Part shown: positions 32,618 to 54,740 of the stretch, piece by piece
Numbering within the stretch: the first letter of the stretch is position 1
Layout of the letters: every line of letters starts with the position of its first letter
DNA from: a virus
DNA: 64,000 nucleotides
Direction: 5' to 3' (one strand)
Virus record (IMG/VR): IMGVR_UViG_3300035698_006513
The notes under the pieces: generated by a model
The model's input: only the letters and a program-made list of their open reading frames with translations
What the model was told of the DNA's origin: nothing
The model's database searches: none
Program-made: the position numbers and the translations under genes

Positions 32618-32775
32618 ATTAAGATGCGTGTCCCGTTTAGGGAATTGAGCCCTAACATAGTCCTGACTGCCACCACCCGTGTAATGAGGACAGTGTAAGC
32701 AGACTACCTAGATAAAGCCTTCAGTATATAACGCTACACGGCGGTACATAAAGATGACTCACCTCGGAACATAAG

Positions 32776-32849
32776 TTGCGGAAGCGGGATTTGAACCCAC
32801 GACCTCGTGGTTATGAGCCACACGCGCTACCAGACTGCGCTATTCCGCA
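32776..32849 (-). tRNA. tRNA-Met (CAT), initiator-like body
   Basis: TGCGGAA/TTCCGCA acceptor; TGTGG-CTCATAA-CCACG anticodon arm; GTGGG-TTCAAAT-CCCGC T arm. Confidence 0.9.
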
Positions 32850-32855
32850 AAAAAA

Positions 32856-32919
32856 CGTCTCGATATAGGATTTGAACCTACCTTCACCGGTATTCTAAGC
32901 CCGATTGAACTACCGAGAC
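32856..32919 (-). ncRNA. 64-nt tRNA-like RNA lacking an anticodon arm
   Basis: GTCTCGG/TCGAGAC acceptor, D arm GTTC/GAAT, T arm GTAGG-TTCAAAT-CCTAT, only 10 nt (ACCGGTGAAG) between D and T arms. Confidence 0.7.
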
Positions 32920-32929
32920 ATATAAAAAG

Positions 32930-33003
32930 TACCTAGGGTGGGAATCGAACCCACACTTTTAGGATTTTAAATCCTATACGTCTACCGCTTGCGTGACCTA
33001 GGT
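32930..33003 (-). tRNA. tRNA-Leu (TAA) with short variable loop
   Basis: ACCTAGG/CCTAGGT acceptor; TAGGA-TTTAAAA-TCCTA; variable loop AAAGT; GTGGG-TTCGATT-CCCAC. Confidence 0.85.
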
Positions 33004-33419: not shown

Positions 33420-33950
33420 TTATTTTGTTCTGAACAGGCTACCCAGTAAGGTCCATTCGTACGAGGATATGTTCCCCGAATGGATAGGTACCGCATCAAC
33501 CGATTTCTTCACAGTAATCGTAATGTTATCGCTAGTAACCCTGACTACACACCAATGGCACTCTTGCTCCAAACCTTCCGGAGTGAATTGCAGTAGCATG
33601 TCATGTGGGCGAGACGCGTTGTCTGAGTCATCACAGTCTATAAGAGACAGTCGTCTATACTGATCCTTATCCACTTCTACCAGCGCATATGGCTGATGCT
33701 CACCATCATGAACCAGATCACTAGGCTCATCACCGCTGGTAGTAGCGTCCTCTATAATGTAGGAGGGTATACTATCAAAACGTGCGTTGGCTACGTCCCT
33801 CCTTACCTCTTGAGCCACCTGTAGCCACATTCGTTTACTTATGCGTATCCCAATCTTCACATCGATATTGTCGTAATCCTCTCGCAGTGGAGCTACTAAT
33901 ACAAAGTACGGTTCGTTGTCTGTGTCTCTGGGTAGTGTGACTTTTCTCAT
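33420..33950 (-). CDS. Paralog-family protein (array 1; lacks C-terminal tag)
   Basis: FVLVAPL...IGIRISKRMW N-terminal motif. Confidence 0.6.
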   Translation of the reverse strand: MRKVTLPRDTDNEPYFVLVAPLREDYDNIDVKIGIRISKRMWLQVAQEVRRDVANARFDSIPSYIIEDATTSGDEPSDLVHDGEHQPYALVEVDKDQYRRLSLIDCDDSDNASRPHDMLLQFTPEGLEQECHWCVVRVTSDNITITVKKSVDAVPIHSGNISSYEWTLLGSLFRTK

Positions 33951-34315
33951 TATGATGATTCCTTATTGAGGTTCTCTGTTTTGAGTGCACGATCAAACTT
34001 ACCATTAAGGAAGGTGATGACTTTTCCTCGCTCACCTTGACGCTTAACCCACTCACACATAGGTACGAACATCTCTTTACAGATGATCCAGTACTTCTTG
34101 CCTAATGCTTCCTTAGCGTTTTCTTCTGGTACAACTTCAGACAATGCACGACTCAGCCACCCAAGTTCTGTATGAGAGACTACTCCATTGAAAAAGGTTC
34201 TCACCAATTCGCGCGAGCTGCGCATAGGTGTATCGCCATTATTGTAGGTATCTTCTGGGAGTACCGTGTCTGGTCCCAAACCAAAAATTAGTGTACTCAT
34301 AGTATCTCCTAACAA
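33950..34315 (-). CDS. Hypothetical protein
   Basis: AGGAG RBS; no family motif seen. Confidence 0.65.
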   Translation of the reverse strand: MLGDTMSTLIFGLGPDTVLPEDTYNNGDTPMRSSRELVRTFFNGVVSHTELGWLSRALSEVVPEENAKEALGKKYWIICKEMFVPMCEWVKRQGERGKVITFLNGKFDRALKTENLNKESS

Positions 34316-34369
34316 GTTGAAATATAAGGCTTCTCCTACAGACGCCTCTTACTCACTTATTACGTATTC

Positions 34370-34789
34370 CTACAGTAGTATACTCATAGGTAATGAAGGT
34401 GGTGCGTATGTAGGAGAAAAAGTACTCTCTCCGAAAGTTAGGATGCACTCCACCGAATAATAACGACTTGCAGTCGCAGCGCCGTGCCATGCAATGTACG
34501 GGATACCACGGTGCAATATTACTCTCCTCGATAAATATTTGTTAGGTAGCACCGTGGTACTCCACCTATCTGATGAATCCTTTATTACTATAGTGAGAGT
34601 GTCTACTTGCATATGTGGGTAGATACAGACCCTGTCAACCGTAGGAAACATGGATATTTCAGGTCTAGCCGTATCTATATCGCTCTTTATACACCGCCAG
34701 GTGTGTATATCTAGTCCTACTCCTATAGTACCTTTACCTGTCGCAGGAACGAGTATTACGTGCTCCCCGTTTCTAGGCATAACATTCAT
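34370..34789 (-). CDS. Paralog-family protein (array 1)
   Basis: VILVPATGKGTIGVGLD; ends SLPMSILL; ATGA overlap sets start at 34789. Confidence 0.7.
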   Translation of the reverse strand: MNVMPRNGEHVILVPATGKGTIGVGLDIHTWRCIKSDIDTARPEISMFPTVDRVCIYPHMQVDTLTIVIKDSSDRWSTTVLPNKYLSRRVILHRGIPYIAWHGAATASRYYSVECILTFGESTFSPTYAPPSLPMSILL

Positions 34790-35277
34790 AGTAACCTCGT
34801 TGCTGGCAGTTGAATACGGGATGGTTCTTCTCGTGTCTGCATATATTCGTTCCATATAAGTTGCATATCGCCTATATCTATCCTCTTCGATATATGACCC
34901 CCGCACGAAATACTCCACTGGTTGCGCTGAAAGCATATTTGTTTAGGCGCTCTGTGCTGAGATAGACTTCTTATCTTAGATATGTCTTTCATCTTGTATA
35001 ATGTGTTAGTACATAAGCCGTAGAAACCTAGATTACCGCTAATATGAAACGCGGAGTTGAAGTCTAAATCATAATGACCGTAGTATCCCGCTTCCATGCC
35101 CTCTGTAATAATGGTCATTATGGTATCCCACACGAAGGGAAGGAACTTAATAACGAACACAGGGTCATGTGACAGACCCTGTGTTAGTACAACCAAGTCA
35201 TTTCTCTTTGGGAGTGTCCATACTTCTTTTATGGACTTCGTCAGACTGTGCCTATATTCAGGGTACTCTCGATTCAT
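34786..35277 (-). CDS. Paralog-family protein (array 1)
   Basis: Ends RIQLPATRLL. Confidence 0.7.
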   Translation of the reverse strand: MNREYPEYRHSLTKSIKEVWTLPKRNDLVVLTQGLSHDPVFVIKFLPFVWDTIMTIITEGMEAGYYGHYDLDFNSAFHISGNLGFYGLCTNTLYKMKDISKIRSLSQHRAPKQICFQRNQWSISCGGHISKRIDIGDMQLIWNEYMQTREEPSRIQLPATRLL

Positions 35278-36143
35278 ATGAGACCTCCTATATTACGAGG
35301 TAATTTAACCTCGCCTAAGTCTTCCGCTTCTTTGTCATCTTCGGGACCATCTTCCCCACCGTATATAGTTATCCTTCCAGCGTTCTCCATAGCGGATAGT
35401 TGGTTGAGTCTACCCATATTTATATGGGCCATAGTTCTCCACAGAGATCCGAGCTCATCTGCGGTAGCTCGGATCTCTCCACTTGCAGCGTCTAGGCTAG
35501 GTACAACTGCTACATTTTCTTCTACATAGCTACAAAAAGAGTCGAAAATAGAACTATTGCTAAGCTCACCTATGACCGGTGTGGGTGGCGTAAGCCGTGC
35601 TGGTCCGCGATGTAGAAACTCCCCCGGTACCTGCATAGCTGCCATGATTGCGTCCGAAGTGTAAATGTCGTTATCGGGACCTGACGCCCTAACATTAGAT
35701 AGATCTACAGTGGCACCGATATGCGGTGCATTTACCCGCTCAAAGTCTACTACTCCACGCGAAGGTACTGTAAGGAATGTCTCATAGCTGTGTGGTGTGG
35801 TGGAGTATAACTCGCCCCCAACTCGCACCTCCCACACCAAGTACCGTGTATGAAACACACAGTGCAATTTCTCCAGTACATATGATACGCGAGGCGCTCC
35901 CGGATTTCTGGTAACTACACTAACCGGAACATCTAAAGTACTGCAGTCATCCTCAATCCTCACTGTTCCAAGATCACTATGTTCTGCAGATAGCGTGGAT
36001 AGAAACGTTTCTATTATGTTGAAGCTATTAAATTGTACATCAGATATTCTTACACGTAGACTGAAATCCGCAACACTCCCATCCTCAGTACGTACAGGCA
36101 TCAATATGCTTCTACATAGCCCTGACACTCTAAATACACTCAT
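35274..36143 (-). CDS. Paralog-family protein, extended (array 1)
   Basis: SILMPV...LRVRISD; ends EVKLPRNIGGLI. Confidence 0.7.
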   Translation of the reverse strand: MSVFRVSGLCRSILMPVRTEDGSVADFSLRVRISDVQFNSFNIIETFLSTLSAEHSDLGTVRIEDDCSTLDVPVSVVTRNPGAPRVSYVLEKLHCVFHTRYLVWEVRVGGELYSTTPHSYETFLTVPSRGVVDFERVNAPHIGATVDLSNVRASGPDNDIYTSDAIMAAMQVPGEFLHRGPARLTPPTPVIGELSNSSIFDSFCSYVEENVAVVPSLDAASGEIRATADELGSLWRTMAHINMGRLNQLSAMENAGRITIYGGEDGPEDDKEAEDLGEVKLPRNIGGLI

Positions 36144-36241
36144 GCCATCTCCTTACTTTTATGTAAAACACAAACATCTCGAAAAGAACATTGATCTAAA
36201 TGTTTGTTATCTACCTCTTCTGCCCATTTCACCGTACGTAA

Positions 36242-36796
36242 TTATAGTGTTACGTGAGGAATGTGTAATTGGTGTGGTACTTGCTCCATAAGGCAAGACA
36301 TCTCAGGTAATGCCAGGACAACACTGCGAGAATGTCTCGCAGTGTTTACTACACATCCGTGTAGCAGAACTGACCACCAAAGTTCTCCCTCTTTTCCGAA
36401 ATGCAGGTAAGCACTTGTGTGATTCACTACAGTTCTAACGCGAATACTTGCCCATTCAAATGCACTAGACGATGCGCTACTACCCGCCTCGCCACATAGG
36501 TACTCAAGAGATGTACCAGAGTACATATCCAGTATCATATTATGTTCAACGCTACCGAACTTAACCACAAAACCTTGTTTGTTTACATTATACGCGTGTG
36601 TCAGGCTCGTAAACGGTATATTCTGATGATGAGATTTACTCTCTTTACTCATACGTGCAGCAGCATCACTCATTTCAACTAAATACATGATCTTGTCGAG
36701 TGTCAACTTTACGTACACAGCGTATTCCACTCTATTACCCCGTCTTTGTGGCCCATCACTTTCTGCTCTCAAACCCAACCTGATATACTTAGCCAT
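36242..36796 (-). CDS. Paralog-family protein (array 1)
   Basis: VYVKLTLDKIMYL; ends QLHIPHVTL. Confidence 0.7.
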   Translation of the reverse strand: MAKYIRLGLRAESDGPQRRGNRVEYAVYVKLTLDKIMYLVEMSDAAARMSKESKSHHQNIPFTSLTHAYNVNKQGFVVKFGSVEHNMILDMYSGTSLEYLCGEAGSSASSSAFEWASIRVRTVVNHTSAYLHFGKEGELWWSVLLHGCVVNTARHSRSVVLALPEMSCLMEQVPHQLHIPHVTL

Positions 36797-36861
36797 ATCA
36801 TCTCCTTGCGAAACACCTATCCTAGTGTTTTTGTTAATCTATAGCACAAAGCGAAACTTCT

Positions 36862-37380
36862 CTAAACTACCACAATGGGAATATGAGGCTCTTGGAGTAT
36901 CTCCTGTACCTCTTGCTCTATGTGCTCTACTAATTTTAGTAGAAAATCTAGAGCCGTCCTCGTAAGTCCCGCGGATACACCTTTATCTATAGAGACGCGT
37001 AAACTATTTTCTAAGGAACGTACGCGTAATATAGGAATGACGATATCACCCCTCTTAGGGTCGTACTCAGTATAAGCGGCGTAAGAAGAGTTGTACTTTA
37101 TCTCTAATGTTCCCGATCTATCTATAGCTACCACCGTTCGTAACGGAGTATTGTTAAATAGACCAGGGCAGAATACCCCGTCTGAGTGGCAATTACGCAT
37201 CCTGCCTTGCATTACAAGATCCACAAACATCTCCGCGCGCCTCATATCACTGCCCGAACCGCGCATGAAGTTATAAGATGCGTCCATGATACTTAGTAGA
37301 CCACGTACCCCATCCGCAGTAAGGTCTAATATCAGTGTACGCTGTCCTCTAGTAGGTATACATACTCTCACGGTGTTCAT
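36862..37380 (-). CDS. Paralog-family protein (array 1)
   Basis: VRVCIPTRGQRTLILDLTADGVRGL; ends EPHIPIVVV. Confidence 0.75.
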   Translation of the reverse strand: MNTVRVCIPTRGQRTLILDLTADGVRGLLSIMDASYNFMRGSGSDMRRAEMFVDLVMQGRMRNCHSDGVFCPGLFNNTPLRTVVAIDRSGTLEIKYNSSYAAYTEYDPKRGDIVIPILRVRSLENSLRVSIDKGVSAGLTRTALDFLLKLVEHIEQEVQEILQEPHIPIVVV

Positions 37381-37386
37381 AATAAC

Positions 37387-37914
37387 TCATGGCCTCACTA
37401 ACGGTAATTGTACTGTGGGTACAATATTATCTCGTTCAAGTCTCAGGCAAGACAGGACTATAGCTATCTCTTCTGGAAATATCTGCTCCGATTTTCCTAA
37501 ACCATCCACCTCCCAGTGCACACACTCACTAGAGAACACTATAGATGAGTTAGTATCTTCGTACTCCTCTACACCATCACACACATTACCCTGCGTCACT
37601 CCAACTACATCGCCATTGGTACCTGTATCCACACCTACGGATATAGAGTACAATGACCTATTTTGCATATACCCAGGCAGGTATATATAAGGAGCACGTC
37701 TAATTATCACTCCGCTATTTTCGTACTTTGTTGCGTACAGACGCAACTGACGTAATGCGTAGTTATAATATATATCTATCATATTCGTTATCATGTGCGT
37801 CCACATAGTCAGCTGTGGCTTATCTACCCTGTGCAATAGAGTGTGCTCTGTGCCTATAGGAACTGCCATCATCATTGTAGGAAAGTTATCACTATCTTGT
37901 GGCAAATCAGTCAT
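37387..37914 (-). CDS. Paralog-family protein (array 1)
   Basis: MMAVPIGTEHTLLHRVD; ends TVQLPLVRP. Confidence 0.7.
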   Translation of the reverse strand: MTDLPQDSDNFPTMMMAVPIGTEHTLLHRVDKPQLTMWTHMITNMIDIYYNYALRQLRLYATKYENSGVIIRRAPYIYLPGYMQNRSLYSISVGVDTGTNGDVVGVTQGNVCDGVEEYEDTNSSIVFSSECVHWEVDGLGKSEQIFPEEIAIVLSCLRLERDNIVPTVQLPLVRP

Positions 37915-38545
37915 ACTTATAATCCTCTACACCCTGCAGTACAGCAAACCTGTGTATACGAATCCACTGTTCGTCTAGTCTTGCGTCTGATGCGTCCAGA
38001 TTATATGGACCAGTAAACGCACTCTCTACGAAATCTCGTAAAAACTCCCCTCCTACGATAGGCTGAGGTGTGTTTGTGTGCTTCAACATCAGATTTATTG
38101 TGGATGACGCTGTATTATCTGCGTGCGGATATGAGTAATCTAGGTCTACGCGTTTCATACCCATACCTGCGTACCACTTTGCCTGTCTGTCCTTTGCCTC
38201 CAATACAATCCAATCAAATTGCGGATGGTTTGCGTACGAGTTTACTACATACGAAAACACCTCTGACCCATATCCACGTCCTTGTACGGTTGTGCACATA
38301 GACAGGTATGACAGCAGTACGTATTTGTGTTTGATGTTCTCGTGCACTACGTAAAAACCTATTATACCCGTCTTCATTCGCACAATATACACTTTATACA
38401 CTTTCTTGCGGACAGATTCTGTCATACTGCGGATAGATTCACGTTCCCGTGCAGGAAAGACGTCTCCGTACATAGAAATAAACGTTGACCATGTGAATCC
38501 GTACGCTTTATGTAGCTGTTTTATCGTTAAACGTCCCATACTCAT
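37907..38545 (-). CDS. GNAT-family N-acetyltransferase
   Basis: Acetyl-CoA motif LSYLSMCTTVQGRGYGSEVF; IVLE; WYAGMG. Confidence 0.85.
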   Translation of the reverse strand: MSMGRLTIKQLHKAYGFTWSTFISMYGDVFPARERESIRSMTESVRKKVYKVYIVRMKTGIIGFYVVHENIKHKYVLLSYLSMCTTVQGRGYGSEVFSYVVNSYANHPQFDWIVLEAKDRQAKWYAGMGMKRVDLDYSYPHADNTASSTINLMLKHTNTPQPIVGGEFLRDFVESAFTGPYNLDASDARLDEQWIRIHRFAVLQGVEDYKYD

Positions 38546-38636
38546 CCCCTATTGGTTATAGTTGTACGACATCTTGTACCTGTTACGTCCCGCAATATTA
38601 TTCTCTATTGCTTATAATTAAGGTAGCGGATATTAT

Positions 38637-41600
38637 ATGGGTAACTCAGTTCGCTACCCCAAAACTACGTTAACGGAGAAAGATATGCCTACATACCCAA
38701 TTTCATGGCCCGAGGAACTCACTCACCACATAGCTACGCATTGGTTTAATGAGGAATTTTCTATCCTAAGAGAGAGTCTGAGGGGAGCATTTCTTTCTGT
38801 TGAGGGTAAAATCGCAGGTATGCCTATTAAAGGCACAGTAGATGTAGCAACAGTATCTGTATTAACTGATACACCTGTTTACGACAATACTGCAGGTACG
38901 CTGACTGCTGCAGGAACAGCCACAATAACACCCATAGACGGAATCACACTCGTTGTAGGAAGCCGCATACTGGTTAAAGATCAGGTAGACGCAAAACACA
39001 ACGGATTATACGTAGTTTCTGTTCTGGGGGATGGCGCTACTGTAGGTTATGTACTCACTCGCTCTGTAGACGCAGATGAGTCCGTAGAACTGACAAACAA
39101 TATGATTGTTGGTGTTAGAGTAGGGACTATCAACGATGACAAGAGATTCCAACTCACAACCGACGACGCTCCTATAGTGATAGGGACTACCGACTTGGTA
39201 TTTGAAGAGTATACCGGCGGCGGGACTATGTGGGTAGACATAGGATCTGATACTGCAGCGGTCACAGGGTCCGGGTATCTAATATCTGCTGCTAGTAATC
39301 CCGTAGACCTGACTTTACCCTTGGCACCTAATGTCGGTGACCAAGTAAAGGTCAAAGTTTACGACGTTACGAATCCTGTAAACGTATTAAGGAACTTCGC
39401 GAACATACAGGGAGCAGCCAGTGACTACCCTGTAACAAATCTATCTGGATTCTCACTTGTCTACGCAGGCGCAACAGAAGGATGGACAATAACAGACAAT
39501 ATTATTGTACCTCCGATACTAACTGCAGACCAGATAGCGTCATTCCCTGTAGGGGCTAGTGCTATCAATCCATTAGCACTTGCGTCAGACGCACGATTCC
39601 CTACTACGGATGAAAAAGCGTCATTTCCTGCAACAGCCAGTGCAGCATTACCTTTGGCACTGGAGTCTGATACGCGTTTCCCCACTGCTAACGAGAAAGC
39701 ATCATTCCCTGCTGGAGCAACAGCAATAAATCCTCTGGCGCTACTATCAGACATTGAGGGGTTAGAGTGGACGGTCATATCTGCAGATACGCTCGCTGTC
39801 AATAAAATCGGGTACATGATAGACGGATCTACTTCTACCGTAGACCTAACTCTCCCACTAGGACCTTCTGTGGGAGACATTGTTGGTGTCGCCGCTTTCA
39901 ATGTAACTAACACAGTTCGGGTTATGCGAAACGGCAGCAACATCAAGAGTATAGCAGACGATATAGAGTTGGATGTGGAATCTGGGTTTACCTTGGCCTA
40001 CACTGGAGCTACTGCAGGTTGGATTTTAGTTACTGAGATTTCGGGTGGTGAAACAATAGCTACGGTATTTGACGGTATATACTGCGTTAAAGGCACAGTC
40101 ACCACTAAGCATGACACGATTGCCGCCGCCTTAGTCGTCGCTGGTGGGTCCGGTCTCGTGTTAGTAGGACCGGGGTCCTACGCAGAATCTATTACTATAG
40201 ATGGAGATGAGACTGTTAAGTCGTTAGGTGGCGCTAACGTAACTTCAATTACAGGCGCTGCTGCTACTGGAGCTCGGGTAACATTTGCGGGGACTAATTC
40301 CAAGATAAATGGTTTTAGTATACTTCAACCCACAGATGCTACTCCTGCTATTCTTCATAATCATGCAGGTGTTAGTACCGCTAAAGACTGCTTCCTTGCA
40401 GGATCCGGGGCAAGCGGTAAAGGTGTATCCTTAACCGGTGCAGGGACTATGATTGGTTCTGGCATCACTTACGTTTCTGGTACATGCGATACAATATTTG
40501 AAGTAGACGGTGTCGGACACATGACAATCAACAACTTCTCTGTCATAGGGGCAACTGCTGCTGCAGCATTTAGTGCTAGTGGTGGAGGTAAACTATCAGC
40601 CCAGACAGGAAGTATTTCCTCTTCTACACTTACTGATGGATTCTTAGTTGCAGATGGGGATGTTACTATTGGCGAAGTCAATTTCCTAGACACAGGAACA
40701 ACTGTCAATGGTATTCACGCTACACACGCAGATTCACATATTGACGCTCACGGTATCAATATGGAGACAAATGTAGATAACCACATTTTAGTAGACCCTG
40801 CAATCATTCCTACAGCAGTTCATGTTTCGTCTGCGGATCTTATACGAGATAGAATTAGTTACGATGCAGCTGCAGCAGTAAGCGTCGCGATCCAATTCTC
40901 TGATTCTACAGAAGGAGATGTTGGAACCTGTTTTCATGGTGAAGTAGCTGTGGGTAGACCTGAAAATGGAAATGAGTTAATCGCAGGTGAGGGCGATTCC
41001 TATACCAGAGGTATGCAGGTACTAACGACAGACGGAACGGCTGACGCCACTACAGATGGTGGAAATCTTACAGACGTTTCCGCTGCCGCAGCTTCAGCTA
41101 GTGGGTCTACATTCACGTTCCAAGATGTAACCGCAGGTCATGCCATTATCGTAGGGTCATCTCTTTCGGGGGATACTGACGTACTCAAGCACTGGGGACT
41201 GAAGACCTCACAAACGACTGCTGCGGTTGAAGTTACTAAACGCTCATTCTTGGTAGAGAAGTCGACAACAGCTGGATGGACTCCCGTCGGAGTTATGACC
41301 ACACACTCCAGTAATTTTTATCGGTACGCGAATGAGCTCTTTATTCGCACGAACACCTCCGAGCACCTACGATATGGTCTGTCTGCTGAGTCGACATGGA
41401 ATAAGCGGACTATTAACGGCGATAATCTGTACTGGATGCGTATACGCATTCTTACTACGGTAACTACCGCTCCTGTGTTCGAGCAGTTCAAGTTATCCTC
41501 CAACCGTTTTGAAGCAAATGGGGACGGAACCAACACGTATCACGGTAATAGTCGCTACATTACTACCCTCCAAGGAATCGGTAATATATTTGCAGAATCA

Positions 41601-42131
41601 GGTGGAGTTGTTAATGGTAATATAGCTGTTGGATCAGGCGGTCTACCCACTGGTTGGAATCATGAATACCTAAACGCAGAACTGAATGCAGATGGCGATG
41701 CCACATATATGCAATTCAACCTACCTCGCGGTATAGACACGTCATTCCCCCTAGAAGTCGACCTGACTTACGGATTAGATGTCCAGAGTGCCACACCAGC
41801 AAGTCTGATTATGTCCCTTATTCCTGTAGAGGTGGCCGGTGTGATTGAGGCGGACCCAAGTGGAGGGACGGCACCAATCGCAAGAACTCTAGGCGAAACA
41901 GAAACACTCACAGGCAAAGTTGGCTATAGCGACACTCAGTCTATCGATGTTTCAGACTCAGACAAACTCCAGAAGACCACCTTCACAGGTTTTGACGTTT
42001 CCTCTTACTATGAGGGGGATATGTGTTTCGTCCGACTAGAGGGGGATAACATCAATACATCTGATATTATTATATTCTCCTTGGGTTTCCGTACGGTGTT
42101 CTGGACCAACGGTGAGCATCTAAACCTCTAG
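38637..42131 (+). CDS. Large tail fibre / virion adhesin-like protein
   Basis: RILVKDQ..NGLYVV..LTRS.DAD module; two copies of 'VDLTLPLxPxVGD' domain; 23-aa repeats; beta-helix-like middle. Confidence 0.75.
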   Translation: MGNSVRYPKTTLTEKDMPTYPISWPEELTHHIATHWFNEEFSILRESLRGAFLSVEGKIAGMPIKGTVDVATVSVLTDTPVYDNTAGTLTAAGTATITPIDGITLVVGSRILVKDQVDAKHNGLYVVSVLGDGATVGYVLTRSVDADESVELTNNMIVGVRVGTINDDKRFQLTTDDAPIVIGTTDLVFEEYTGGGTMWVDIGSDTAAVTGSGYLISAASNPVDLTLPLAPNVGDQVKVKVYDVTNPVNVLRNFANIQGAASDYPVTNLSGFSLVYAGATEGWTITDNIIVPPILTADQIASFPVGASAINPLALASDARFPTTDEKASFPATASAALPLALESDTRFPTANEKASFPAGATAINPLALLSDIEGLEWTVISADTLAVNKIGYMIDGSTSTVDLTLPLGPSVGDIVGVAAFNVTNTVRVMRNGSNIKSIADDIELDVESGFTLAYTGATAGWILVTEISGGETIATVFDGIYCVKGTVTTKHDTIAAALVVAGGSGLVLVGPGSYAESITIDGDETVKSLGGANVTSITGAAATGARVTFAGTNSKINGFSILQPTDATPAILHNHAGVSTAKDCFLAGSGASGKGVSLTGAGTMIGSGITYVSGTCDTIFEVDGVGHMTINNFSVIGATAAAAFSASGGGKLSAQTGSISSSTLTDGFLVADGDVTIGEVNFLDTGTTVNGIHATHADSHIDAHGINMETNVDNHILVDPAIIPTAVHVSSADLIRDRISYDAAAAVSVAIQFSDSTEGDVGTCFHGEVAVGRPENGNELIAGEGDSYTRGMQVLTTDGTADATTDGGNLTDVSAAAASASGSTFTFQDVTAGHAIIVGSSLSGDTDVLKHWGLKTSQTTAAVEVTKRSFLVEKSTTAGWTPVGVMTTHSSNFYRYANELFIRTNTSEHLRYGLSAESTWNKRTINGDNLYWMRIRILTTVTTAPVFEQFKLSSNRFEANGDGTNTYHGNSRYITTLQGIGNIFAESGGVVNGNIAVGSGGLPTGWNHEYLNAELNADGDATYMQFNLPRGIDTSFPLEVDLTYGLDVQSATPASLIMSLIPVEVAGVIEADPSGGTAPIARTLGETETLTGKVGYSDTQSIDVSDSDKLQKTTFTGFDVSSYYEGDMCFVRLEGDNINTSDIIIFSLGFRTVFWTNGEHLNL
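39520..39750 (+). repeat. About three 69-bp (23-aa) tandem repeats ASFPxGAxAxxPLALxSDxRFPTxxEK
   Basis: Visible in DNA (GCGTCATTCCCTG / GCGTCATTTCCTG / GCATCATTCCCTG) and in protein. Confidence 0.85.
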
Positions 42132-42140
42132 GAGAATACA

Positions 42141-42560
42141 ATGGTCTTGAAAATAAGCGAACTCTACCCTAAGTCTGTACTAGCTGCGAATGCTAGCACG
42201 GTGACGAGCAGTTTTAATAGCAATTTATCTGCTGCTGATCCCGTTGTGCAATCAGCACTTGAAACTCTAGATGATAAACCTATCATCACTTCTGATCAGG
42301 CAGCTGCATTTCCAACTGGTGCTGACGCAAGCAATCAGCTTTTAACAAGTGGCAGATATGAGAACGACCTATCGGCTGTCGTTGATGCTACCAGACTTCA
42401 AAGTGCTACCTTTACTGGCTTTGACATTTCTAAATACTATGAAGGAGATATGTGTCTTGTTCGTGTAGATGGGAATAGCATTGGTTCTGCCGATATTATT
42501 ATTATGTCACTTGGGTTCCGTGCTGCCCATTGGACACATGGCGAACACCTAAACGCATAG
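42141..42560 (+). CDS. Mosaic mini-fibre protein built from parts of both neighbours
   Basis: N-terminus matches 42570 ORF; C-terminus matches 38637 ORF. Confidence 0.7.
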   Translation: MVLKISELYPKSVLAANASTVTSSFNSNLSAADPVVQSALETLDDKPIITSDQAAAFPTGADASNQLLTSGRYENDLSAVVDATRLQSATFTGFDISKYYEGDMCLVRVDGNSIGSADIIIMSLGFRAAHWTHGEHLNA

Positions 42561-42569
42561 GAGATTATT

Positions 42570-43397
42570 ATGGCTCAGAAAATTAGTGAACTTTTCCCAA
42601 ACTCTGTTCTTGCGGCTAATGCCAACACAGATACTAGTAACTTTGATACCAAACTTTCGGTAGCAGACACAACGGTACAAGCTGCACTTGAAACTCTTGA
42701 TGCCCATGTTGGTGTAGCTCTTAAAGGTTTTTACGATGTTACTGGCTCAGCAGGTAGTGATCAAGATATAGCTGTTCCTGCTGGCTCAACCTCTTTTAAA
42801 TTCAGAGGAGTGGCAGCAGGTGGTGGTGGAGGTGGAGTAGGTGCTTTCTACGATAAAGGAGGCGGTGGAGGCGCTGGAGAGTATGGTGAAGGATATCTGC
42901 TGGGTTTGACAGGAGTAACTCATGTTCGTATAAATCTTGGAACAGGTGGAGTAAAAGCTGCAGCTACTAATCAGCGTGGAGGGACTGGCGGAGATACCGT
43001 AATTTCTAAAGTGATAGCAGCTACTCCTACTTTACTGGCAACTTTGAAAGGAGGCACTGGTGGGGCATCTGGTGATGACTATGGCGTAGCAGGCCCTGGT
43101 GGTACCGGTGGTACTGTACCAATTAACTCTTTTCTTGTTGATGGGCCAAATGGTAATGACGGACGGAATTCAGGAACGACAGTGAATCATCACTATTACT
43201 TAGGAAATGGAGGTAATAGTAAATTAGGTAGTGGTGGGAAATCAGGATCAGATCGAATAGGAGCGGGGGCAGGTACTGGAGATGTAGCGACTGTTGGTAA
43301 ATATGGTGGTGGAGGCGCTGGCGGGATATACGATACAGTTGTTTTTGATCCATCTGCTGCTGGAGATGGCCGAGTTATTCTAGAATTCTTTGGGTAA
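42570..43397 (+). CDS. Glycine-rich tail-fibre-associated protein
   Basis: AAGGGGGG, GGGGAGEY, GGGGAGG, GDGRVILEF glycine-rich domain pattern. Confidence 0.75.
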   Translation: MAQKISELFPNSVLAANANTDTSNFDTKLSVADTTVQAALETLDAHVGVALKGFYDVTGSAGSDQDIAVPAGSTSFKFRGVAAGGGGGGVGAFYDKGGGGGAGEYGEGYLLGLTGVTHVRINLGTGGVKAAATNQRGGTGGDTVISKVIAATPTLLATLKGGTGGASGDDYGVAGPGGTGGTVPINSFLVDGPNGNDGRNSGTTVNHHYYLGNGGNSKLGSGGKSGSDRIGAGAGTGDVATVGKYGGGGAGGIYDTVVFDPSAAGDGRVILEFFG

Positions 43398-43553
43398 AAT
43401 GAGGTGTAATGATGAGTCAGAGTTGATCCTTTCTTTAGTTATCTTCCATCCTCAGTTCAAGTTTATGTCTCGTATCCAAACTCTACTGTCCGAGCAAACT
43501 CTACCATCCAGCACGGTGTCGAATACGTCGCGTAGCAGACACGCGTACCCAAT

Positions 43554-43600
43554 CAGCTAAAAAGAAGACGATCCCTCCTCCGTACTCGTCTTTTTAGCTG
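43554..43600. terminator. Bidirectional terminator between convergent units
   Basis: CAGCTAAAAAGA..GACGA / TCGTCTTTTTAGCTG inverted repeat. Confidence 0.6.
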
Positions 43601-43897
43601 TTATACGCGAACCGGAGGCAGACTCACTTCCCCTTGTCTAGGTCCGCATAGGATACGCCAAGCCTCAAGCAAGCATTCTCCTTTATCCACAAACATATTC
43701 CCCGTAATCTCTTGGTATCTCAAGAAAGATAGCCATTTACCTTCCACAGGGAAATACGTACAGAAATAATCAGGTCGCACTTTCTGGATAGCCCTGAGTA
43801 TTCTCTCCTTGCTGTTTACCTCTCTCTGAAGATCTGAGCAACAGGATCCGTTGTAGCATCGCCTATCCGTGGCGTAGTGTAGTCTCGGTTCTTTCAT
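43601..43897 (-). CDS. Hypothetical protein
   Basis: GGAG RBS; ends VSLPPVRV, a tag-like C-terminus. Confidence 0.6.
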   Translation of the reverse strand: MKEPRLHYATDRRCYNGSCCSDLQREVNSKERILRAIQKVRPDYFCTYFPVEGKWLSFLRYQEITGNMFVDKGECLLEAWRILCGPRQGEVSLPPVRV

Positions 43898-43931
43898 TGT
43901 ACATCTCCATTCGTTCTACTAGTGAGTATCC

Positions 43932-44084
43932 TTATATAAACACCTGCGGCATTTGAGCCACTCTCAACCTAGAATCTTCCTCCTCTACGATTAAGTTGTG
44001 AAGGTAACGTATGTCATCCGCACTCAAATTCAGTATCAAAGACACTTCCTCGCGCACAGGTATGACTAATTTCATTGTGTCCAT
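43932..44084 (-). CDS. Minimal 50-aa paralog-family member (not in ORF track)
   Basis: Own translation: MDTMKLVIPVREEVSLILNLSADDIRYLHNLIVEEEDSRLRVAQMPQVFI. Confidence 0.75.
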   Translation of the reverse strand: MDTMKLVIPVREEVSLILNLSADDIRYLHNLIVEEEDSRLRVAQMPQVFI

Positions 44085-44086
44085 GC

Positions 44087-44605
44087 TTATATCCTTACCT
44101 GCGGTACGCGCAATGTACCTATATTCTCCACGTCATCCAGTGACTGCAGCAGTTCGCACAAAAAGCGTAATACCGACATACCGATAGTATGAGATACTTC
44201 ACTTCCCTGTCTCCATACCATAAAAGTTCCATGCATCCGTACACGCACATCTCTAATTCCTGCGTATATAGTATTGTTCTCGTAATATTCTGCCGTACGC
44301 TCTGCTGCTATATTGTGTATTACGTAATCAGACTCTGGTAATCCCCGTGATACACTGCGGATGTCCGCATGACCAAACATACCCATCACATGTGTGTACG
44401 GAGACCACCTATTCAGTCCACAGTAGGTATTAACTTCAGGGGAAGCCTCTACCAATACACGCGAAACGCCATTACATGGCTGCGATTTTATTTCAGCCGC
44501 ATAGCGTATTAAACGCAGCCATGTTTTCAGTGTAGATGCGTTTATGTCCTGTATTATAGAAAAGCAGTCACTGACGGGTATGATTAGTTTACGTGTTACA
44601 GACAT
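44087..44605 (-). CDS. Paralog-family protein (array 2)
   Basis: RKLIIPVSDCFSIIQDINASTL; ends TLRVPQVRI. Confidence 0.75.
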   Translation of the reverse strand: MSVTRKLIIPVSDCFSIIQDINASTLKTWLRLIRYAAEIKSQPCNGVSRVLVEASPEVNTYCGLNRWSPYTHVMGMFGHADIRSVSRGLPESDYVIHNIAAERTAEYYENNTIYAGIRDVRVRMHGTFMVWRQGSEVSHTIGMSVLRFLCELLQSLDDVENIGTLRVPQVRI

Positions 44606-44877
44606 TATATCACCACCTGTGGTAATTGTACGTCTGCATTACTGTGTTCCGCGTCTAATCCTGTTAGTATATCTAGCAACAGTACCCATACGCACGCGGG
44701 TATACGCCGAGACGCAACGTCTAGACGCATATAACGCAACCTCGTACCCACAACAGCCGCACGTGTACACACATGATCCATCTCTGTTAACAGCATCGCC
44801 ACCAGCTCTGCTGTAAGATTTATTACTAAGGTCTGTACCGTACCAACAGGTATTACCAGACGCATAGGTTCAGTCAT
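44605..44877 (-). CDS. Short paralog-family protein (array 2)
   Basis: MRLVIPVGTVQTLVINLTAELV; ends DVQLPQVVI. Confidence 0.75.
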   Translation of the reverse strand: MTEPMRLVIPVGTVQTLVINLTAELVAMLLTEMDHVCTRAAVVGTRLRYMRLDVASRRIPACVWVLLLDILTGLDAEHSNADVQLPQVVI

Positions 44878-45503
44878 ATTATCACCATCGGTATACTGGG
44901 TTTGTGTATTATATCCGGCTCAGACGCAGATGGTATACGTTGGTACAAATAATCCAATTCATTCTTACTCATACACATTGTTCTGTGCTTCTCTGGATAC
45001 CCATTCGCCGTGCTTACTATACCCATACCCAGCATAATACCCGATTGACCCGATTGACTCGTTAGCGTTACAGATGAAAGACGTCGTACTAGTACACTAT
45101 CCGCATCAGAGTGTCCGTCTCGGTATGTCTGTAACGTGGGCGCGGTTAACTCTGAGTTCAGATGCAAATACGTGTAATCTTCCATTGACTGCAGATACGC
45201 ATCATTTAAATTTATATCCATACGTGGGTCTGTATGCAGTACGCGTGAGTACGATAATGGTATTTCTGTCATCATATAAGTAGACAGGTCAGTACACCGT
45301 ACGCTTAATTCCGGCCTAACTAAGTCCCTGCCTCCCAGTGTATCCGCAGCTACTTTAGTAGCAATCATAAGCTCTTGCCAACTGCTTATTACGCTATGTG
45401 TAACAGCCACCAACAAAGACAAATCATCTCGGTCATCCATCGCCATTGCTGCATACAAAACCGGCTCTTTGTAATCAAACACATCTTTCTCCTTTATGCG
45501 CAC
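44874..45503 (-). CDS. Paralog-family protein (array 2)
   Basis: LSLLVAVTHSVISSW; ELDYL; ends KPSIPMVII. Confidence 0.7.
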   Translation of the reverse strand: MRIKEKDVFDYKEPVLYAAMAMDDRDDLSLLVAVTHSVISSWQELMIATKVAADTLGGRDLVRPELSVRCTDLSTYMMTEIPLSYSRVLHTDPRMDINLNDAYLQSMEDYTYLHLNSELTAPTLQTYRDGHSDADSVLVRRLSSVTLTSQSGQSGIMLGMGIVSTANGYPEKHRTMCMSKNELDYLYQRIPSASEPDIIHKPSIPMVII

Positions 45504-45576
45504 AAACGCAAATCCGCGCGTTTCATCCGCACACTCTACATGAAATGCGTTTATATGACTTTAGGTACATACGCAT

Positions 45577-46107
45577 CTATCCGCACATAAACGGTGGTAT
45601 CTGTATCCGCTCTATTGGCTCAGCGCAGTCCTCTTCCTCCATTACATCAAGTAGGTAGTCTAGATTATCTCGCCACAGTACATACGTGTTCTGTGGTGGG
45701 TTAGCGTTATATGAGATTGACCAGACTATTCCATCCTTTGCTTCGTCAGACACATACTTTATCTCGTACTTACAAGAAAGAGACTGGTTAAGACTTTTCA
45801 ACACATACGCGTCTAGTGTAGGTATACCAGGTATATCCTGTGGGTCATTTAAGTCTACCGTCTTATTGTCAGTAAGATATAGAATACCGGGCGTACCTAT
45901 ACCTGCGAACCTATACTTGGTGCGCTATACATCAGTTATAGAACAGTTAGTACAACTAGACCATGCGATTCCATCCGTCAACTCCTCTAGCAAGTCTATA
46001 ATACGGATACACTCTTTTACAAACGCAGTGTCTATATCTATCAACAGCGACTCCGCAACGTAAAAGTAATCGTCCAGGTTTAACATTAACTTTCTACGCA
46101 TAGACAT
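45577..46107 (-). pseudogene. Paralog-family gene interrupted by one in-frame TAG (45925-45927)
   Basis: The two track ORFs share a frame and the intervening 120 nt are open; ends RIQIPPFMCG. Confidence 0.75.
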
Positions 46108-46115
46108 CTCCTTCC

Positions 46116-46295
46116 TTATAATAAGTTACCTACATTAGGTAGCTGTACGGCTCCTACCACTTCACTTCCAGTCTCCGGAGACTCTTGCATGTTCCGCACT
46201 ATCATATCGTGTACAGCCATTAACTCATACAGATTTAAACTGTATGATGCATAATCGCTCAAACCTAACATCGGTAACAATAGGTTATAATCCAC
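46116..46295 (-). CDS. Minimal 59-aa paralog-family member (not in ORF track)
   Basis: AGGAGG RBS; MDYNLLLPMLG...LNLYELMAV...AVQLPNVGNLL. Confidence 0.65.
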   Translation of the reverse strand: MDYNLLLPMLGLSDYASYSLNLYELMAVHDMIVRNMQESPETGSEVVGAVQLPNVGNLL

Positions 46296-46309
46296 AGCTC
46301 ACTACCTCC

Positions 46310-46861
46310 TTATAGCAACAGTATGTTAGGTAAGACGGGAGTCTGTATTGTCTCAGTAGTCCTTTGCGATGTGGGACCGTACTCTTCAAATCTACATATC
46401 GTGCTATATATCAATTCTAGTGTACCCATATACATGTGTATAGATTTGAAGATTGTGCCATTGAACAAGGAGCACCAATACAATACGCAATTACCTTCCC
46501 ACCTTGAACAGGTAATACTCATGCCGTCTAATGCACTTACTGTTACAGGAGGCATTATATTGAACATACCAGGCACACTGCGTAGGTGTGCTCCAGCAAG
46601 ATCATACGTAGAATCACCATCACCAGAAAATATTGAAGCTGTAGGTAGACACATAGAGGAAATCGAGTACGCATTCAGCGTATTATCAACACAGTAGAGG
46701 TCTTTCTGCGTCAAATTATGTGTAGTTTGTGTGTCTATCAGCGACGTGTACGCACCAATCATAGATTTTAAGTAGTTCATGTACGAGGAAGAAAGTTTGA
46801 TACAGATAGTACTTCCGGTTGACCATCTTGTTGGGACAGCAAGATAATATTGCATAGGCAC
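46310..46861 (-). CDS. Paralog-family protein (array 2)
   Basis: YYLAVPTRWSTGSTICIKLSSSYMNYL; ends TPVLPNILLL. Confidence 0.75.
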   Translation of the reverse strand: MPMQYYLAVPTRWSTGSTICIKLSSSYMNYLKSMIGAYTSLIDTQTTHNLTQKDLYCVDNTLNAYSISSMCLPTASIFSGDGDSTYDLAGAHLRSVPGMFNIMPPVTVSALDGMSITCSRWEGNCVLYWCSLFNGTIFKSIHMYMGTLELIYSTICRFEEYGPTSQRTTETIQTPVLPNILLL

Positions 46862-46863
46862 TC

Positions 46864-47105
46864 CTATATAATAGGTACAGATGGCATCGAAACACTACTA
46901 TATGGTGCCGACGCATTCATCTTTCTCCGAATACCCATGAGTGTAGATATATATACAATACACGTAGTTACATGTACCAGCCTACCTTCTCCAAGGTCTG
47001 CTCCATCATCTCCCGCCAGTCCGCTATCTCCTCCATAGTAACTGGTAGTAGAATATTCTTGTGCATAGGATCTTGCGTACCTAGCAAAACATGTATCTTT
47101 TCCAT
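46864..47105 (-). pseudogene. Frameshifted paralog-family member
   Basis: AAAGGAG-ATG 47105 gives MEKIHVLLG...NILLPVTMEEIADW, stop at 46968; the tag VSMPSVPII lies in another frame ending 46864. Confidence 0.6.
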
Positions 47106-47203
47106 TACTTACTCCTTTATGCAAAAAAATACCCCTCATACCATTGCTTACCTGTGATTATAGGTATGAGGGGTCTACTCACTCTCTTGTTACACATATG
47201 ACA

Positions 47204-48463
47204 CTAACACTTCTCCACTCCACCACTTTCAATGACACGGAGTATCTTCGACATATCATCCTCATTGTAGGAGTCGGCCCTGCGTTCTATGATACTAACC
47301 GCAAGTACCGCGGCCTCGCTCATATTGTGAAGCCGGTTTTCGTACAGTTCTGCATCTACTATCAGTGATTTTATGTCTCTACTTGCAGAGGCAGCCAACT
47401 CCTCTACTCGCCCTAACATACCCATATCTGCCAATGCTGCATCGACTGCCTCAATAGGCATATTCACGGCGTCATCAAGATCTTTGTCCTCTTCTGCATC
47501 GAAGAAGTCTATAATGTCTGCCTCCTTCACATATAGATCCTCGATCGATCTCACCTTCTTCTGGCTGCGTACGGGGATCTCCGTATTTATAGCAGATCTT
47601 AACCATGACTTCAGGAACGGCATTGCGTATCGAAATACGACATCACCTTCACTCTTCGAGGTGAACTGTATCTGGAGAAGTGGTATGGCATCATTGTAGT
47701 CAGGTATCTTGGTAAGAAGAACAGTAGATATTTCTACCCCATCACCTTTATTAGGGGGTGACCCTACGAGGAAGTAGTTGACTTCTTTAGAATCGGAGGG
47801 TAACGACACGGATCTTTCGATATGTTTGTAGTCTTGTCTACTGTGGGTACAGTAAGACATGATTACGTCGCATACTCGCACTTGAGACGCACACAACGAA
47901 ACTGTATTCCCTCGCGGACAGCGTCCGGGGTCCACTAATGCGCCCAATGCGTCTACATCTAACTCTGCCCATATAGACTTGTTCTCCCCTTCGATGGGAG
48001 CCCACACTTGTATGAACTTGTTCGCTACCTCTTTCTCGTGGTCCAGAATAGTCTGTAACAAGTACGAGAATGGTACGAACACACTCTCTACTACGACTGC
48101 GTTTAGTAGTACGACATACACATATGCACCTAGCTCACCCATCACCAAGAAACTTGACGAAGGAATCTCTTCTCCTTTATAAGGAGAAATACCATCTCGC
48201 CATTTTCCCAGGTCGGCTGACGACATAATGTCCGCAGACACCATGCTATCAAGCATTCTTCTGAATTTTCTATCTGAGAGCGGTAGTCTCAGAACAGAAG
48301 GAACCTTCACACCACTTACCACACAAGACGATAGTGAGAGATTAGCGCAGGCAATCTCTCCACTCAGCATTCCCTTAGCCAAGGGCAGATGCTCAAAGGG
48401 AATCGAGCACTGAATTGATTTATTATCATTCGTAGGTAGCCACACTCTTAGATCTTTACTCAT
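47204..48463 (-). CDS. Protein with two tandem family-like domains and acidic helical tail
   Basis: LRVWLPTNDNKSIQCSI and IQVWAPIEGENKSIWAELDVDAL. Confidence 0.65.
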   Translation of the reverse strand: MSKDLRVWLPTNDNKSIQCSIPFEHLPLAKGMLSGEIACANLSLSSCVVSGVKVPSVLRLPLSDRKFRRMLDSMVSADIMSSADLGKWRDGISPYKGEEIPSSSFLVMGELGAYVYVVLLNAVVVESVFVPFSYLLQTILDHEKEVANKFIQVWAPIEGENKSIWAELDVDALGALVDPGRCPRGNTVSLCASQVRVCDVIMSYCTHSRQDYKHIERSVSLPSDSKEVNYFLVGSPPNKGDGVEISTVLLTKIPDYNDAIPLLQIQFTSKSEGDVVFRYAMPFLKSWLRSAINTEIPVRSQKKVRSIEDLYVKEADIIDFFDAEEDKDLDDAVNMPIEAVDAALADMGMLGRVEELAASASRDIKSLIVDAELYENRLHNMSEAAVLAVSIIERRADSYNEDDMSKILRVIESGGVEKC

Positions 48464-49130
48464 AACTTTTTCTCCATACCAAACTGTTTTCTCCATCTAA
48501 CACTACTCCGCGCTCTGCCTCTATAGCAGTTTCGCGTATGACTTTAACCGGGTGCTTACACAACCACAACCTCAGCAGTAATGCTGGGATAATACCTGTG
48601 TGCACCTCATCCGCCCCCATCCGTGTACGAAAGTACATTGCTGTCCTCAACAATGCAACTTGTGGTCTCTTCATCTCATACATGTAATTTGGGATGTCCA
48701 TCTCTTTGAGACCATTCTCCATTATAGATCTCTTAGATTTCCTCATTATCTTCCTACCTTCGGTAGACTCATACATATCCAGGAGGCATGTACTTAATTT
48801 ATCCGAACCCGGTGTAAGATCCTCCAGTAATACACGGCCATTTCCTTTCATGGAGAGCTTCTTTGCAGTAGCGTTGCATAACCCCAGCGGCACCACGTGG
48901 GGACTATCATCCTCAAAGGAGGACTCTATTCCATTAAGCCAATCCATTGCTACATCCGCTGTAAATGCCACGCACATGCACGATTCCGTTGGAGATCCTA
49001 TTATCCGCAATAGGACGTGGTACTCATACCACTGGTGCATCACTAGGTTTTCGTACTCATCTACGTCAATGTCCTGTCGGGGGCTGCGTAAATACGCGAT
49101 GAATTCATCGGTATGCACTATTTTACTCAT
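48456..49130 (-). CDS. Hypothetical protein, probably family-related
   Basis: VLLRIIG...MCVAFTADVAMDWL. Confidence 0.6.
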   Translation of the reverse strand: MSKIVHTDEFIAYLRSPRQDIDVDEYENLVMHQWYEYHVLLRIIGSPTESCMCVAFTADVAMDWLNGIESSFEDDSPHVVPLGLCNATAKKLSMKGNGRVLLEDLTPGSDKLSTCLLDMYESTEGRKIMRKSKRSIMENGLKEMDIPNYMYEMKRPQVALLRTAMYFRTRMGADEVHTGIIPALLLRLWLCKHPVKVIRETAIEAERGVVLDGENSLVWRKSYE

Positions 49131-49260
49131 TTTACTCTCCCGTCATAAGTAATAATGGGAACCTGTATCTAATCTCTTATGCCAGTTAACGCTATATTTT
49201 GTGGAATAAGGACGTAAGGACCAAATACTTAATATTTCTACATTGATAAGGAGTAAGTCA

Positions 49261-54311: not shown

Positions 54312-54740
54312 TTAAGGGAATACCACCATCATAGGCGGTAGTAAAATTCCTGCACCAGCATCACCTACTACACGATATTGGTACTCTAGGTCTCCGTTAT
54401 ATCTACACAGCTCGGCTAAAGATCTCTCCATCACCTCGTGTGTTTGACTTGTAAGCATCGCCCATCTACTATCATCTGATGATGTAGCAGGATTAGGCGG
54501 TCTATCGGCGCTTCTAACTATAAGCGATCTCTCTACCCATAGCTTTGAATCTTTCAGGCCCCAACCCGTGAGTATCCTTACAATTTTGATAGTTCGTATC
54601 TTATGGTAGTAAGACCTCATATAGAGGTGATACCCCATACCTTTTTCTTCCCGTAGTATGTTTAGTACCTCATCTATAGACACGCCGCTATCCTGCTTAC
54701 TTCTCGCCCGCATATGATTGTATAGCTCTTCATAAGTCAT
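54312..54740 (-). CDS. Ribosomal protein bL12 C-terminal-domain-like protein
   Basis: KIRTIKIVRILTGWGLKDSKLWVE ~ bL12 KIxVIKxVRxxTGLGLKEAKxLVE. Confidence 0.7.
   Translation of the reverse strand: MTYEELYNHMRARSKQDSGVSIDEVLNILREEKGMGYHLYMRSYYHKIRTIKIVRILTGWGLKDSKLWVERSLIVRSADRPPNPATSSDDSRWAMLTSQTHEVMERSLAELCRYNGDLEYQYRVVGDAGAGILLPPMMVVFP

Follow-up and report, generated by a model that had tools for sequence, protein, structure and literature searches.

A conserved C-terminal tail on arrayed, highly diverged small proteins of an uncultured large phage

In phage T4, the internal proteins IPI, IPII and IPIII and the Alt protein carry a capsid targeting sequence (CTS), a short conserved terminal peptide on small, fast-diverging proteins which are encoded side by side and whose bodies are not constant. 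The CTS is N-terminal, is cut off by the prohead protease and was shown to load the head (PMC3012670, PMC9026906). The cargo-loading peptides of encapsulins are short, hydrophobic and C-terminal, sit behind a flexible linker and dock the cargo onto a shell of the HK97 fold (PMC7355545). Jumbo phages contain lineage-specific expansions of small proteins, for example about 35 zinc-ribbon copies in Bacillus phage G (PMC7824862). Here we analyse a stretch of viral DNA of 64,000 nucleotides (IMG/VR record IMGVR_UViG_3300035698_006513; the whole stretch is called the window below), in which 15 open reading frames (ORFs) end in a common hydrophobic tail built around a proline. They lie in two minus-strand operons, 34370-37914 and 43601-47139, on either side of tail-fibre genes, and are named here by their lower coordinate.

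The tail resembles the CTS in its setting, yet it is C-terminal, has no sequence similarity to the CTS and no protease motif nearby. L-x-K-x-A-[SA], the putative head-protease motif of the phage, occurs in no array protein. On this ground and on that of the C-terminal position we rejected membership in the T4-type system. With the encapsulin peptides it has in common the short hydrophobic C-terminal peptide behind a flexible linker. However, those peptides are of a Gly-Ser-Leu type and their cargo genes stand beside the shell gene, whereas the bearers described here appear to be paralogs of one family and no shell gene is adjacent. The consensus [QS]-[LIMV]-P-x-V-x-h and the neighbouring fibre-like and GNAT-like genes led us to reject membership among encapsulin cargo as well. 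The expansion in phage G is likewise tandem, phage-specific and made from a small domain with no cellular counterpart. Unlike the zinc ribbon, which is a recognisable fold, the array family matches none in Pfam, PHROGs, PDB or BFVD. The array family is in this sense an orphan variant of the theme of a constant terminal peptide on diversifying phage accessory proteins.

The original prediction had listed 14 C-termini with a shared motif, all of which were found on minus-strand ORFs where it had placed them. With the members dropped by our crude gene caller, the bearers in the two gene runs amount to 15 ORFs. The motif is enriched over background, as had been proposed: the regular expression [LIMV]P.[VILMF].{1,4}$ matched 12 of the 98 greedily called genes as against a mean of 1.44 after shuffling of the residues, and none of 2000 shuffles reached 12 (maximum 8). 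Among ORFs outside the gene set it matched 6 of 294. Aligned on the proline, the tails give the consensus E-h-h-G-x-[VP]-[QS]-[LIMV]-P-x-V-x-h-COOH (h, hydrophobic; x, any residue), which is longer than first seen. The proline stands five residues from the C-terminus in eight tails, six in five, and seven or eight in the other two. The final five residues are mostly non-polar, and 13 of the 15 bearers end in L, I, V, M or F, compared with 25 of the 99 ORFs of at least 100 aa. Nine of the 15 tails end in hydrophobic-x-hydrophobic-COOH, and six have Q-[LIM] directly before the proline. The linker that precedes the tail is of variable length (about 5 to 25 residues), acidic and rich in Gly, Pro and Ser. 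Its acidity, which had been described as usual, holds as a tendency (23% Asp or Glu in the 13 residues before the motif vs 11% in the proteins overall) but not as a strict rule. In a scan of the array proteins no transmembrane segment and no signal peptide was found; their character is soluble.

At the codon level the information of the tail resides in positions 1 and 2, namely the T at position 2 of the hydrophobic codons and the CC of the proline codon. Third positions are nearly random (0.08-0.66 bit), and the third base of the proline codon is T in six, A in four, G in four and C in one of the tails. About seven tails overlap the Shine-Dalgarno sequence or the start of the next gene and eight do not, and conservation is alike in both groups. 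Because the tail is conserved with and without an overlapping downstream Shine-Dalgarno sequence and third positions are free, it is a signal at the level of the protein and not of the DNA. As judged from the codons, it is purifying selection on the protein that maintains the tail.

Outside the tail the bearers are hardly alike. In pairwise BLAST only the first 30 residues or so are similar among 36862, 43932, 44605, 44087 and 45925. In a MAFFT alignment, read by eye and unscored, most array proteins show the same order of elements: hairpin-helix, core, strand-helix, linker and tail. The N-terminal module consists of a strand h-h-h-P-h, a turn and a second strand leading into a helix (h-x-h-x-L-[ST]-x-x-x-h-x-x-L). 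The C-terminal module, a second strand-helix of the pattern S-x-x-h-x-h-x-x-x-h-x-x-L, precedes the linker and the tail; both modules were read by eye from the same alignment. The core between them is missing from the members of 50, 59 and 90 aa and reaches about 200 residues in 35274; in the members of 50 and 59 aa the order is simply hairpin-helix-tail. Besides Met1, the only near-invariant columns of the alignment are two prolines, P9 and P165. In leave-one-out tests with profile hidden Markov models (HMMs), from which the last 12 residues had been removed, 36862, 37387, 43932 and 44087 were recovered and 44605, 46310 and 44874 were marginal. Over the 98 genes, the N-terminal motif h-h-h-P-h was present in 9 of 16 tag bearers as against 6 of 82 others (Fisher p = 2e-5). 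The common order of motifs, this association of N-motif and C-tag, and the position in the arrays support common descent of the bearers, which for all of them together is not proven by score. The pattern fits a trait of one tandemly expanded, hyper-diverged and lineage-specific family with constant ends and a variable core.

The association also bears on the idea, put forward in the original prediction, that the tail is a portable tag which marks a cargo set of unrelated proteins. This was not borne out: every convincing bearer belongs to one of the two arrays and the tag is tied to the N-motif, so that it looks like a family trait, and portability is not demonstrated. The three further ends that had been cited from apparently non-homologous ORFs (43601 VSLPPVRV, 54312 ILLPPMMVVFP, 30130 IGIPNLVLGF) do read as quoted, but only the first is informative. 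43601 is a true tail bearer that sits in the array and has the strand-helix-linker-tail module, whereas 30130 and 54312 are at chance level; in a search with a position matrix built from the 15 tails, neither was among the top 45 sites in the window. Outside the arrays the regular expression matched twice, with 1.4 matches expected by chance. The small protein encoded at 54312-54740 (minus strand) matches the bL12 C-terminal domain only weakly, below the threshold (E 3.8e-4, 21 bits).

We searched widely for relatives. An exhaustive search of 1.84 billion protein representatives with the family profile gave 12 matches, all encoded in the window, and when 36862, 35274 and the family profile were used in word-indexed searches of 5.8 billion clusters, nothing but the proteins of the window itself came back. 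Three IMG/VR scans with 36862, 44087 and 47204 found no relatives. The array proteins were assigned to no family in scans of Pfam, PHROGs and NCBIfam; they had no Pfam match at E up to 0.1, and the family profile had no match among PDB sequences at E up to 1. The tail family is an orphan, for which no relatives were found beyond the genes of the phage itself. The motifs h-h-I-P-h and h-x-h-x-L-T-x-x-x-h-x-x-L brought small DNA binders of the SpoVT/AbrB or ribbon-helix-helix kind to mind; the searches gave neither a Pfam or PDB profile match nor a convincing fold match in their support.

Structure prediction gave a similar picture. The ESM Atlas yielded low-confidence models and no usable neighbours. 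Two AlphaFold2 (AF2) models were built with paralogs only as the alignment (13-14 sequences). The model of 36862 has a predicted local distance difference test (pLDDT) score of 49.6 and places a hairpin at 4-9/15-20, a helix at 22-41, a beta-rich core, a strand at 135-140, a helix at 141-161 and the tail as coil. That of 44605 has a pLDDT of 72.4, with strands at 5-11/15-21 and helices at 23-43 and 61-73; the hairpin is its sole sheet, the last block has a pLDDT of about 54, and a two-residue bridge at 83-84 lies in the tail. In both models the tail is mostly unstructured (pLDDT about 48-58). With the model of 44605 as the query, Foldseek (PDB, BFVD) and VIA-align wide returned nothing above noise; the best VIA Z was 5.0 and concerned helices only.

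A possible interpretation, which we hold with moderate confidence, is that one tandemly expanded and diverged family carries the tail as a docking strand, tethered by the acidic linker. Gene duplication would have passed the tail on, with no transplanting onto unrelated proteins. A constant frame, made of the N-terminal hairpin with its almost invariant proline and helix, the second strand-helix, the linker and the tail h-[QS]-[LIMV]-P-x-V-x-h-COOH, would surround a hypervariable insert of 0 to about 200 residues. The tail itself would run as an extended strand with a kink at the proline; its hydrophobic side chains would face one way at -3 and -1 and the opposite way at the proline, +2 and +4. 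Both faces of such a strand would have to be covered, within a groove or between sheets. It may thus dock into a groove or onto the sheet edge of a common partner. Candidates are a phage or host protein shared by the bearers and the exposed N-terminal hairpin, either their own or that of a sister paralog. By this, the variable inserts could be brought to one place or assembled with each other. An appended docking element is favoured over a strand of the core because 33420 keeps the N-motif but has no tail, so that a body apparently can exist on its own, because the tail is coil in the model of 36862 and because the linker is variable. A constrained terminal peptide, a variable acidic linker and the prediction of an unstructured end support the comparison with tethered interaction peptides.

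Docking by an added strand is well known from beta-augmentation motifs such as the PxVxL motif bound by the HP1 chromoshadow domain, the class II PDZ ligand hydrophobic-x-hydrophobic-COOH and the sliding-clamp motif QL[SD]LF. The tail core P-x-V-x-[LIV] matches the HP1 pattern literally, which we take as an analogy of mechanism only, and 9 of the 15 tails fit the PDZ ligand. However, no chromoshadow or PDZ receptor domain was found among the scanned proteins of the window. Donor-strand exchange in chaperone-usher pili, where an N-terminal extension with patterned hydrophobic residues completes the sheet of its neighbour, would likewise explain conserved ends on many paralogs. Yet the pilus subunits are secreted and of an Ig-like fold, while the array proteins are soluble and have no signal peptides, and a polymer of them would be hypothetical. 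None of the defining features of the CTS and encapsulin systems that could be tested was found here, and these likenesses, as well as those to the PxVxL and PDZ motifs, are best read as analogies of mechanism and not as memberships. The sliding-clamp motif (Q-L-[SD]-L-F or Q-L-x-L-x-L) was rejected, since Gln occupies -2 in only 6 of the 15 tails and the hydrophobic residues at -1, +2 and +4 from the proline are spaced differently. So was the sortase signal LPXTG: the tail has one to seven residues after the proline, no Thr-Gly and no hydrophobic span of transmembrane length, and signal peptides are lacking.

Several points weigh against the docking strand. The partner of the tail is putative. 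In the leave-one-out tests the other eight bearers were not recovered at significance, and iterating an N-module HMM from four seeds brought in no further member. The assignment to one family thus rests in part on the shared order of motifs and the position in the array, as homology of the bodies is statistically lacking for about half of the bearers. The AF2 models are shallow and of low to middling confidence, and the bridge between the tail of 44605 and the only sheet would also fit an intramolecular strand. Finally, the genome exceeds 124 kb, of which the survey covers 64 kb, and tags on other families may be encoded elsewhere. The weight of the case is moderate, as it comes from one genome and a putative partner. 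Large phages contain many arrays of small orphan genes, for which a lasting terminal peptide offers one handle; it points to a shared partner and could be used as bait. If the tail is a docking or address peptide, it would define a group of accessory proteins that act together in an uncharted phage lineage, and would supply a transplantable tag.

Among the other explanations, one that deserves serious attention although we consider it rather unlikely is that the tail is an intramolecular structural strand only. It would close a beta-alpha-beta crossover beside the N-terminal hairpin, and its conservation would be that of a folding core. The strand-helix-tail order that most members show by eye, the hairpin-helix-tail order of the two smallest and the co-occurrence of N-motif and C-tag agree with this, and the two-residue bridge in the model of 44605, where the hairpin is the only sheet, is a weak hint that the tail pairs with the hairpin of its own protein. 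Yet the tail is coil in 36862 and of low pLDDT in both models, an acidic, Gly/Pro-rich linker of some 5-25 residues would be an unusual connection from helix to strand, and 33420 has the other modules but no tail. Moreover, a terminal edge strand that is hydrophobic on both faces calls for a further surface to bury it. The terminal peptide outlasts the other similarity in either case; were it a fold element only, the family would be an instance of extreme tandem diversification around fixed ends.

It is also unlikely, to a slightly greater degree, that the tail serves as a genuine address for which phage or host provides one dedicated receptor. Such a receptor might be an enzyme that acts on protein C-termini, a compartment built by the phage, or a site at which the particle or ejection apparatus is loaded. 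If so, the two operons would encode at least 15 interchangeable, fast-evolving effectors which are delivered or processed together, and the tag would be transplantable. The original prediction had suggested a portable address by which a cargo set is loaded into the capsid or ejection apparatus, which we regard as doubtful. Arrays of many small, diverged proteins that each carry a terminal peptide on a flexible linker follow the same logic as the T4 internal proteins (PMC3012670) and the encapsulin loading peptides (PMC7355545). No positive evidence for packaging emerged, however: portability was not demonstrated, the putative head-protease motif is absent from all array proteins, and the operons adjoin fibre genes and not head genes.

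Somewhat more doubtful still is a C-terminal degron that would give the family a short, timed life. Exposed non-polar pentapeptides at the C-terminus are classic signals for bacterial proteases, both of the ssrA type (ClpXP, ClpAP, FtsH) and for the tail-specific protease; non-polar C-termini were reportedly described in this role by Parsell, Silber and Sauer in 1990 and by Keiler et al. in 1996. The prevalence of non-polar final residues in the tails and their predicted exposure in the models are in line with this. But the best conserved part is the Leu-Pro, five to eight residues from the end, rather than the last three; at the very end L, I, V, P and G all occur, and a generic degron has no need for an extended consensus that reaches to -8. 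A nucleic-acid signal that resembles a peptide, be it an embedded ribosome-binding site or coupling signal, a promoter or a terminator element, is barely credible: in about seven genes the last codons (CAG GTG GTG ATA, AGG ATA, GGA GGT) do serve as the Shine-Dalgarno sequence of the next, overlapping gene, but the eight equally conserved tails have no gene start within 8 nt or a separate Shine-Dalgarno sequence past the stop, the Leu-Pro lies 15-25 nt upstream of any start, and the codon evidence (positions 1 and 2 fixed, third positions nearly random) led us to reject an embedded ribosome-binding site as the source of the tail.

The coordinates of the array members and of the elements at the operon ends are collected in Table 1. 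Three array members look altered. In the first, 45577-46107, a single TAG at 45925-45927 (minus strand) separates the ORF 45925-46107, which holds the N-module, from 45577-45804 with the C-module and tail. As TAG is the normal stop in four other array genes, this member is, on its reading frame, a nonsense pseudogene or a case of read-through. In the second, 46864-47139, the frame 46968-47105 (minus strand) contains a family-type N-module behind a strong Shine-Dalgarno sequence (AAAGGAG), and the tail VSMPSVPII lies in a different frame. A (TA)5 run lies close by at about 46942-46951; the gene is probably a frameshifted member or an assembly error. The third is 33420, whose stop follows directly after the last helix. 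A tail is present in no frame, and its kinship rests on motifs only (leave-one-out E 17). The protein encoded at 47204-48496 has hairpin modules at residues of about 14-45 and 228-260. Its similarity to the family is not statistically significant; the protein may be a relative that arose by fusion, or it may accept the tails.

Table 1. Array members and associated elements of the two minus-strand operons, with the evidence for each assignment.
Coordinates	Strand	Feature	Evidence
33420..33950	-	Tail-less relative, 176 aa, N-motif present, C-terminal strand-helix by eye	Motifs; leave-one-out E 17
34370..34789	-	Tail bearer, SLPMSILL; probable true start ATG at 34789 (MNVMPRNGEHVILVPA...), longest ORF to 34936	Sequence
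34786..35277	-	Tail bearer, 163 aa, IQLPATRLL; stop overlaps start of next gene (ATGA)	Sequence
35274..36143	-	Longest of the tail bearers (289 aa); VKLPRNIGGLI after a long acidic linker, GGEDGPEDDKEAEDLGE	No other protein returned by single-sequence search
36242..36796	-	Tail bearer, 184 aa, LHIPHVTL, N-terminal strand without Pro	Sequence, MAFFT alignment
36862..37380	-	Family member, 172 aa, PHIPIVVV	Leave-one-out E 1e-3 without tail; AF2 model
37387..37914	-	Family member, 175 aa, VQLPLVRP, first tagged gene of operon 1	Leave-one-out HMM without tail, E 9e-4
37907..38545	-	GNAT-like acetyltransferase gene, head of operon 1	Pfam GNAT families E 7e-4 to 5e-3, below cut-off; Q-G-R-G-Y-G motif
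43556..43598	-	Terminator-like hairpin between convergent units, directly after last operon 2 gene	-18.5 kcal/mol, z -3.7
43601..43897	-	Final gene of operon 2, 98 aa, with C-module and tail VSLPPVRV; atypical N-terminus	Leave-one-out tail matrix score 14.1
43932..44084	-	Minimal member, 50 aa: hairpin, helix, AQMPQVFI	E 4e-5 to 36862; leave-one-out E 2e-6 without tail
44087..44605	-	Family member, 172 aa, LRVPQVRI	Leave-one-out HMM
44605..44877	-	Compact member, 90 aa, VQLPQVVI	AF2 pLDDT 72.4
44874..45503	-	Tail bearer, 209 aa, PSIPMVII	Leave-one-out HMM (marginal)
45577..46107	-	One member split by in-frame TAG, IQIPPFMCG	Same frame throughout
46116..46295	-	Minimal member, 59 aa, VQLPNVGNLL	Sequence, tail matrix
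46310..46861	-	Family member, 181-183 aa, PVLPNILLL	Leave-one-out HMM (marginal)
46864..47139	-	Tail VSMPSVPII in one frame, family-type N-module in another	Frame reading
47204..48496	-	Tail-less 430-aa acidic protein at head of operon 2, two family-like N-modules	Sequence; 40% over 20 aa to 33420, E 0.21

The source phage is large, uncultured and deeply divergent: searches of GenBank phages with megablast and tblastn gave neither a nucleotide nor a protein match to the window. Encoded in the window are a class II-type ribonucleotide reductase, a RecA-like protein, fibre-like proteins and two tRNAs. The minus strand from 33420 to 49130 holds two densely packed gene runs, which are divided by three plus-strand fibre-like genes (38637-43397); many gene junctions within the runs are ATGA overlaps or gaps of less than 10 nt. 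Run 1 begins with the GNAT-like gene, which shares 8 nt with the first tagged gene, the two being translationally coupled, and ends with 33420, directly upstream of tRNA-Leu and tRNA-Met. These two, tRNA-Met(CAT) and tRNA-Leu(TAA), lie at 32775-33003 on the same strand as operon 1. Run 2 starts at 49130 and ends at 43601, and the strong hairpin follows at once. An A-run and a U-run flank this hairpin, and operon 2 and the fibre genes converge on it; it has the appearance of a bidirectional terminator.

Upstream of the two operons, GGCATAAG occurs at 49176-49183 (minus strand), 46 nt before the first operon 2 gene, and ATTATAAG at 38600-38610 (minus strand), about 55 nt before the GNAT start. 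The ATAAG-type promoter motif GBYATAAG was found 21 times in the window, with 13.8 +/- 3.2 occurrences expected; 4 of 100 shuffles reached 21. As this enrichment is only marginal, the motif was not used as a basis for a temporal class.

The fibre-like genes between the runs match tail-fibre and Gly-rich domain families in PHROG. A JGI metagenome scan with the 1164-aa fibre protein found no relatives. The plus-strand ORFs 38637-42131 and 42141-42560 have a common terminal domain of about 50 aa (…GFD-S-YYEGDMC-VR…GEHLN), and 42141-42560 and 42570-43397, on the same strand, have their first 45 or so residues in common. To judge from these shared segments, this looks like modular shuffling of fibre parts.

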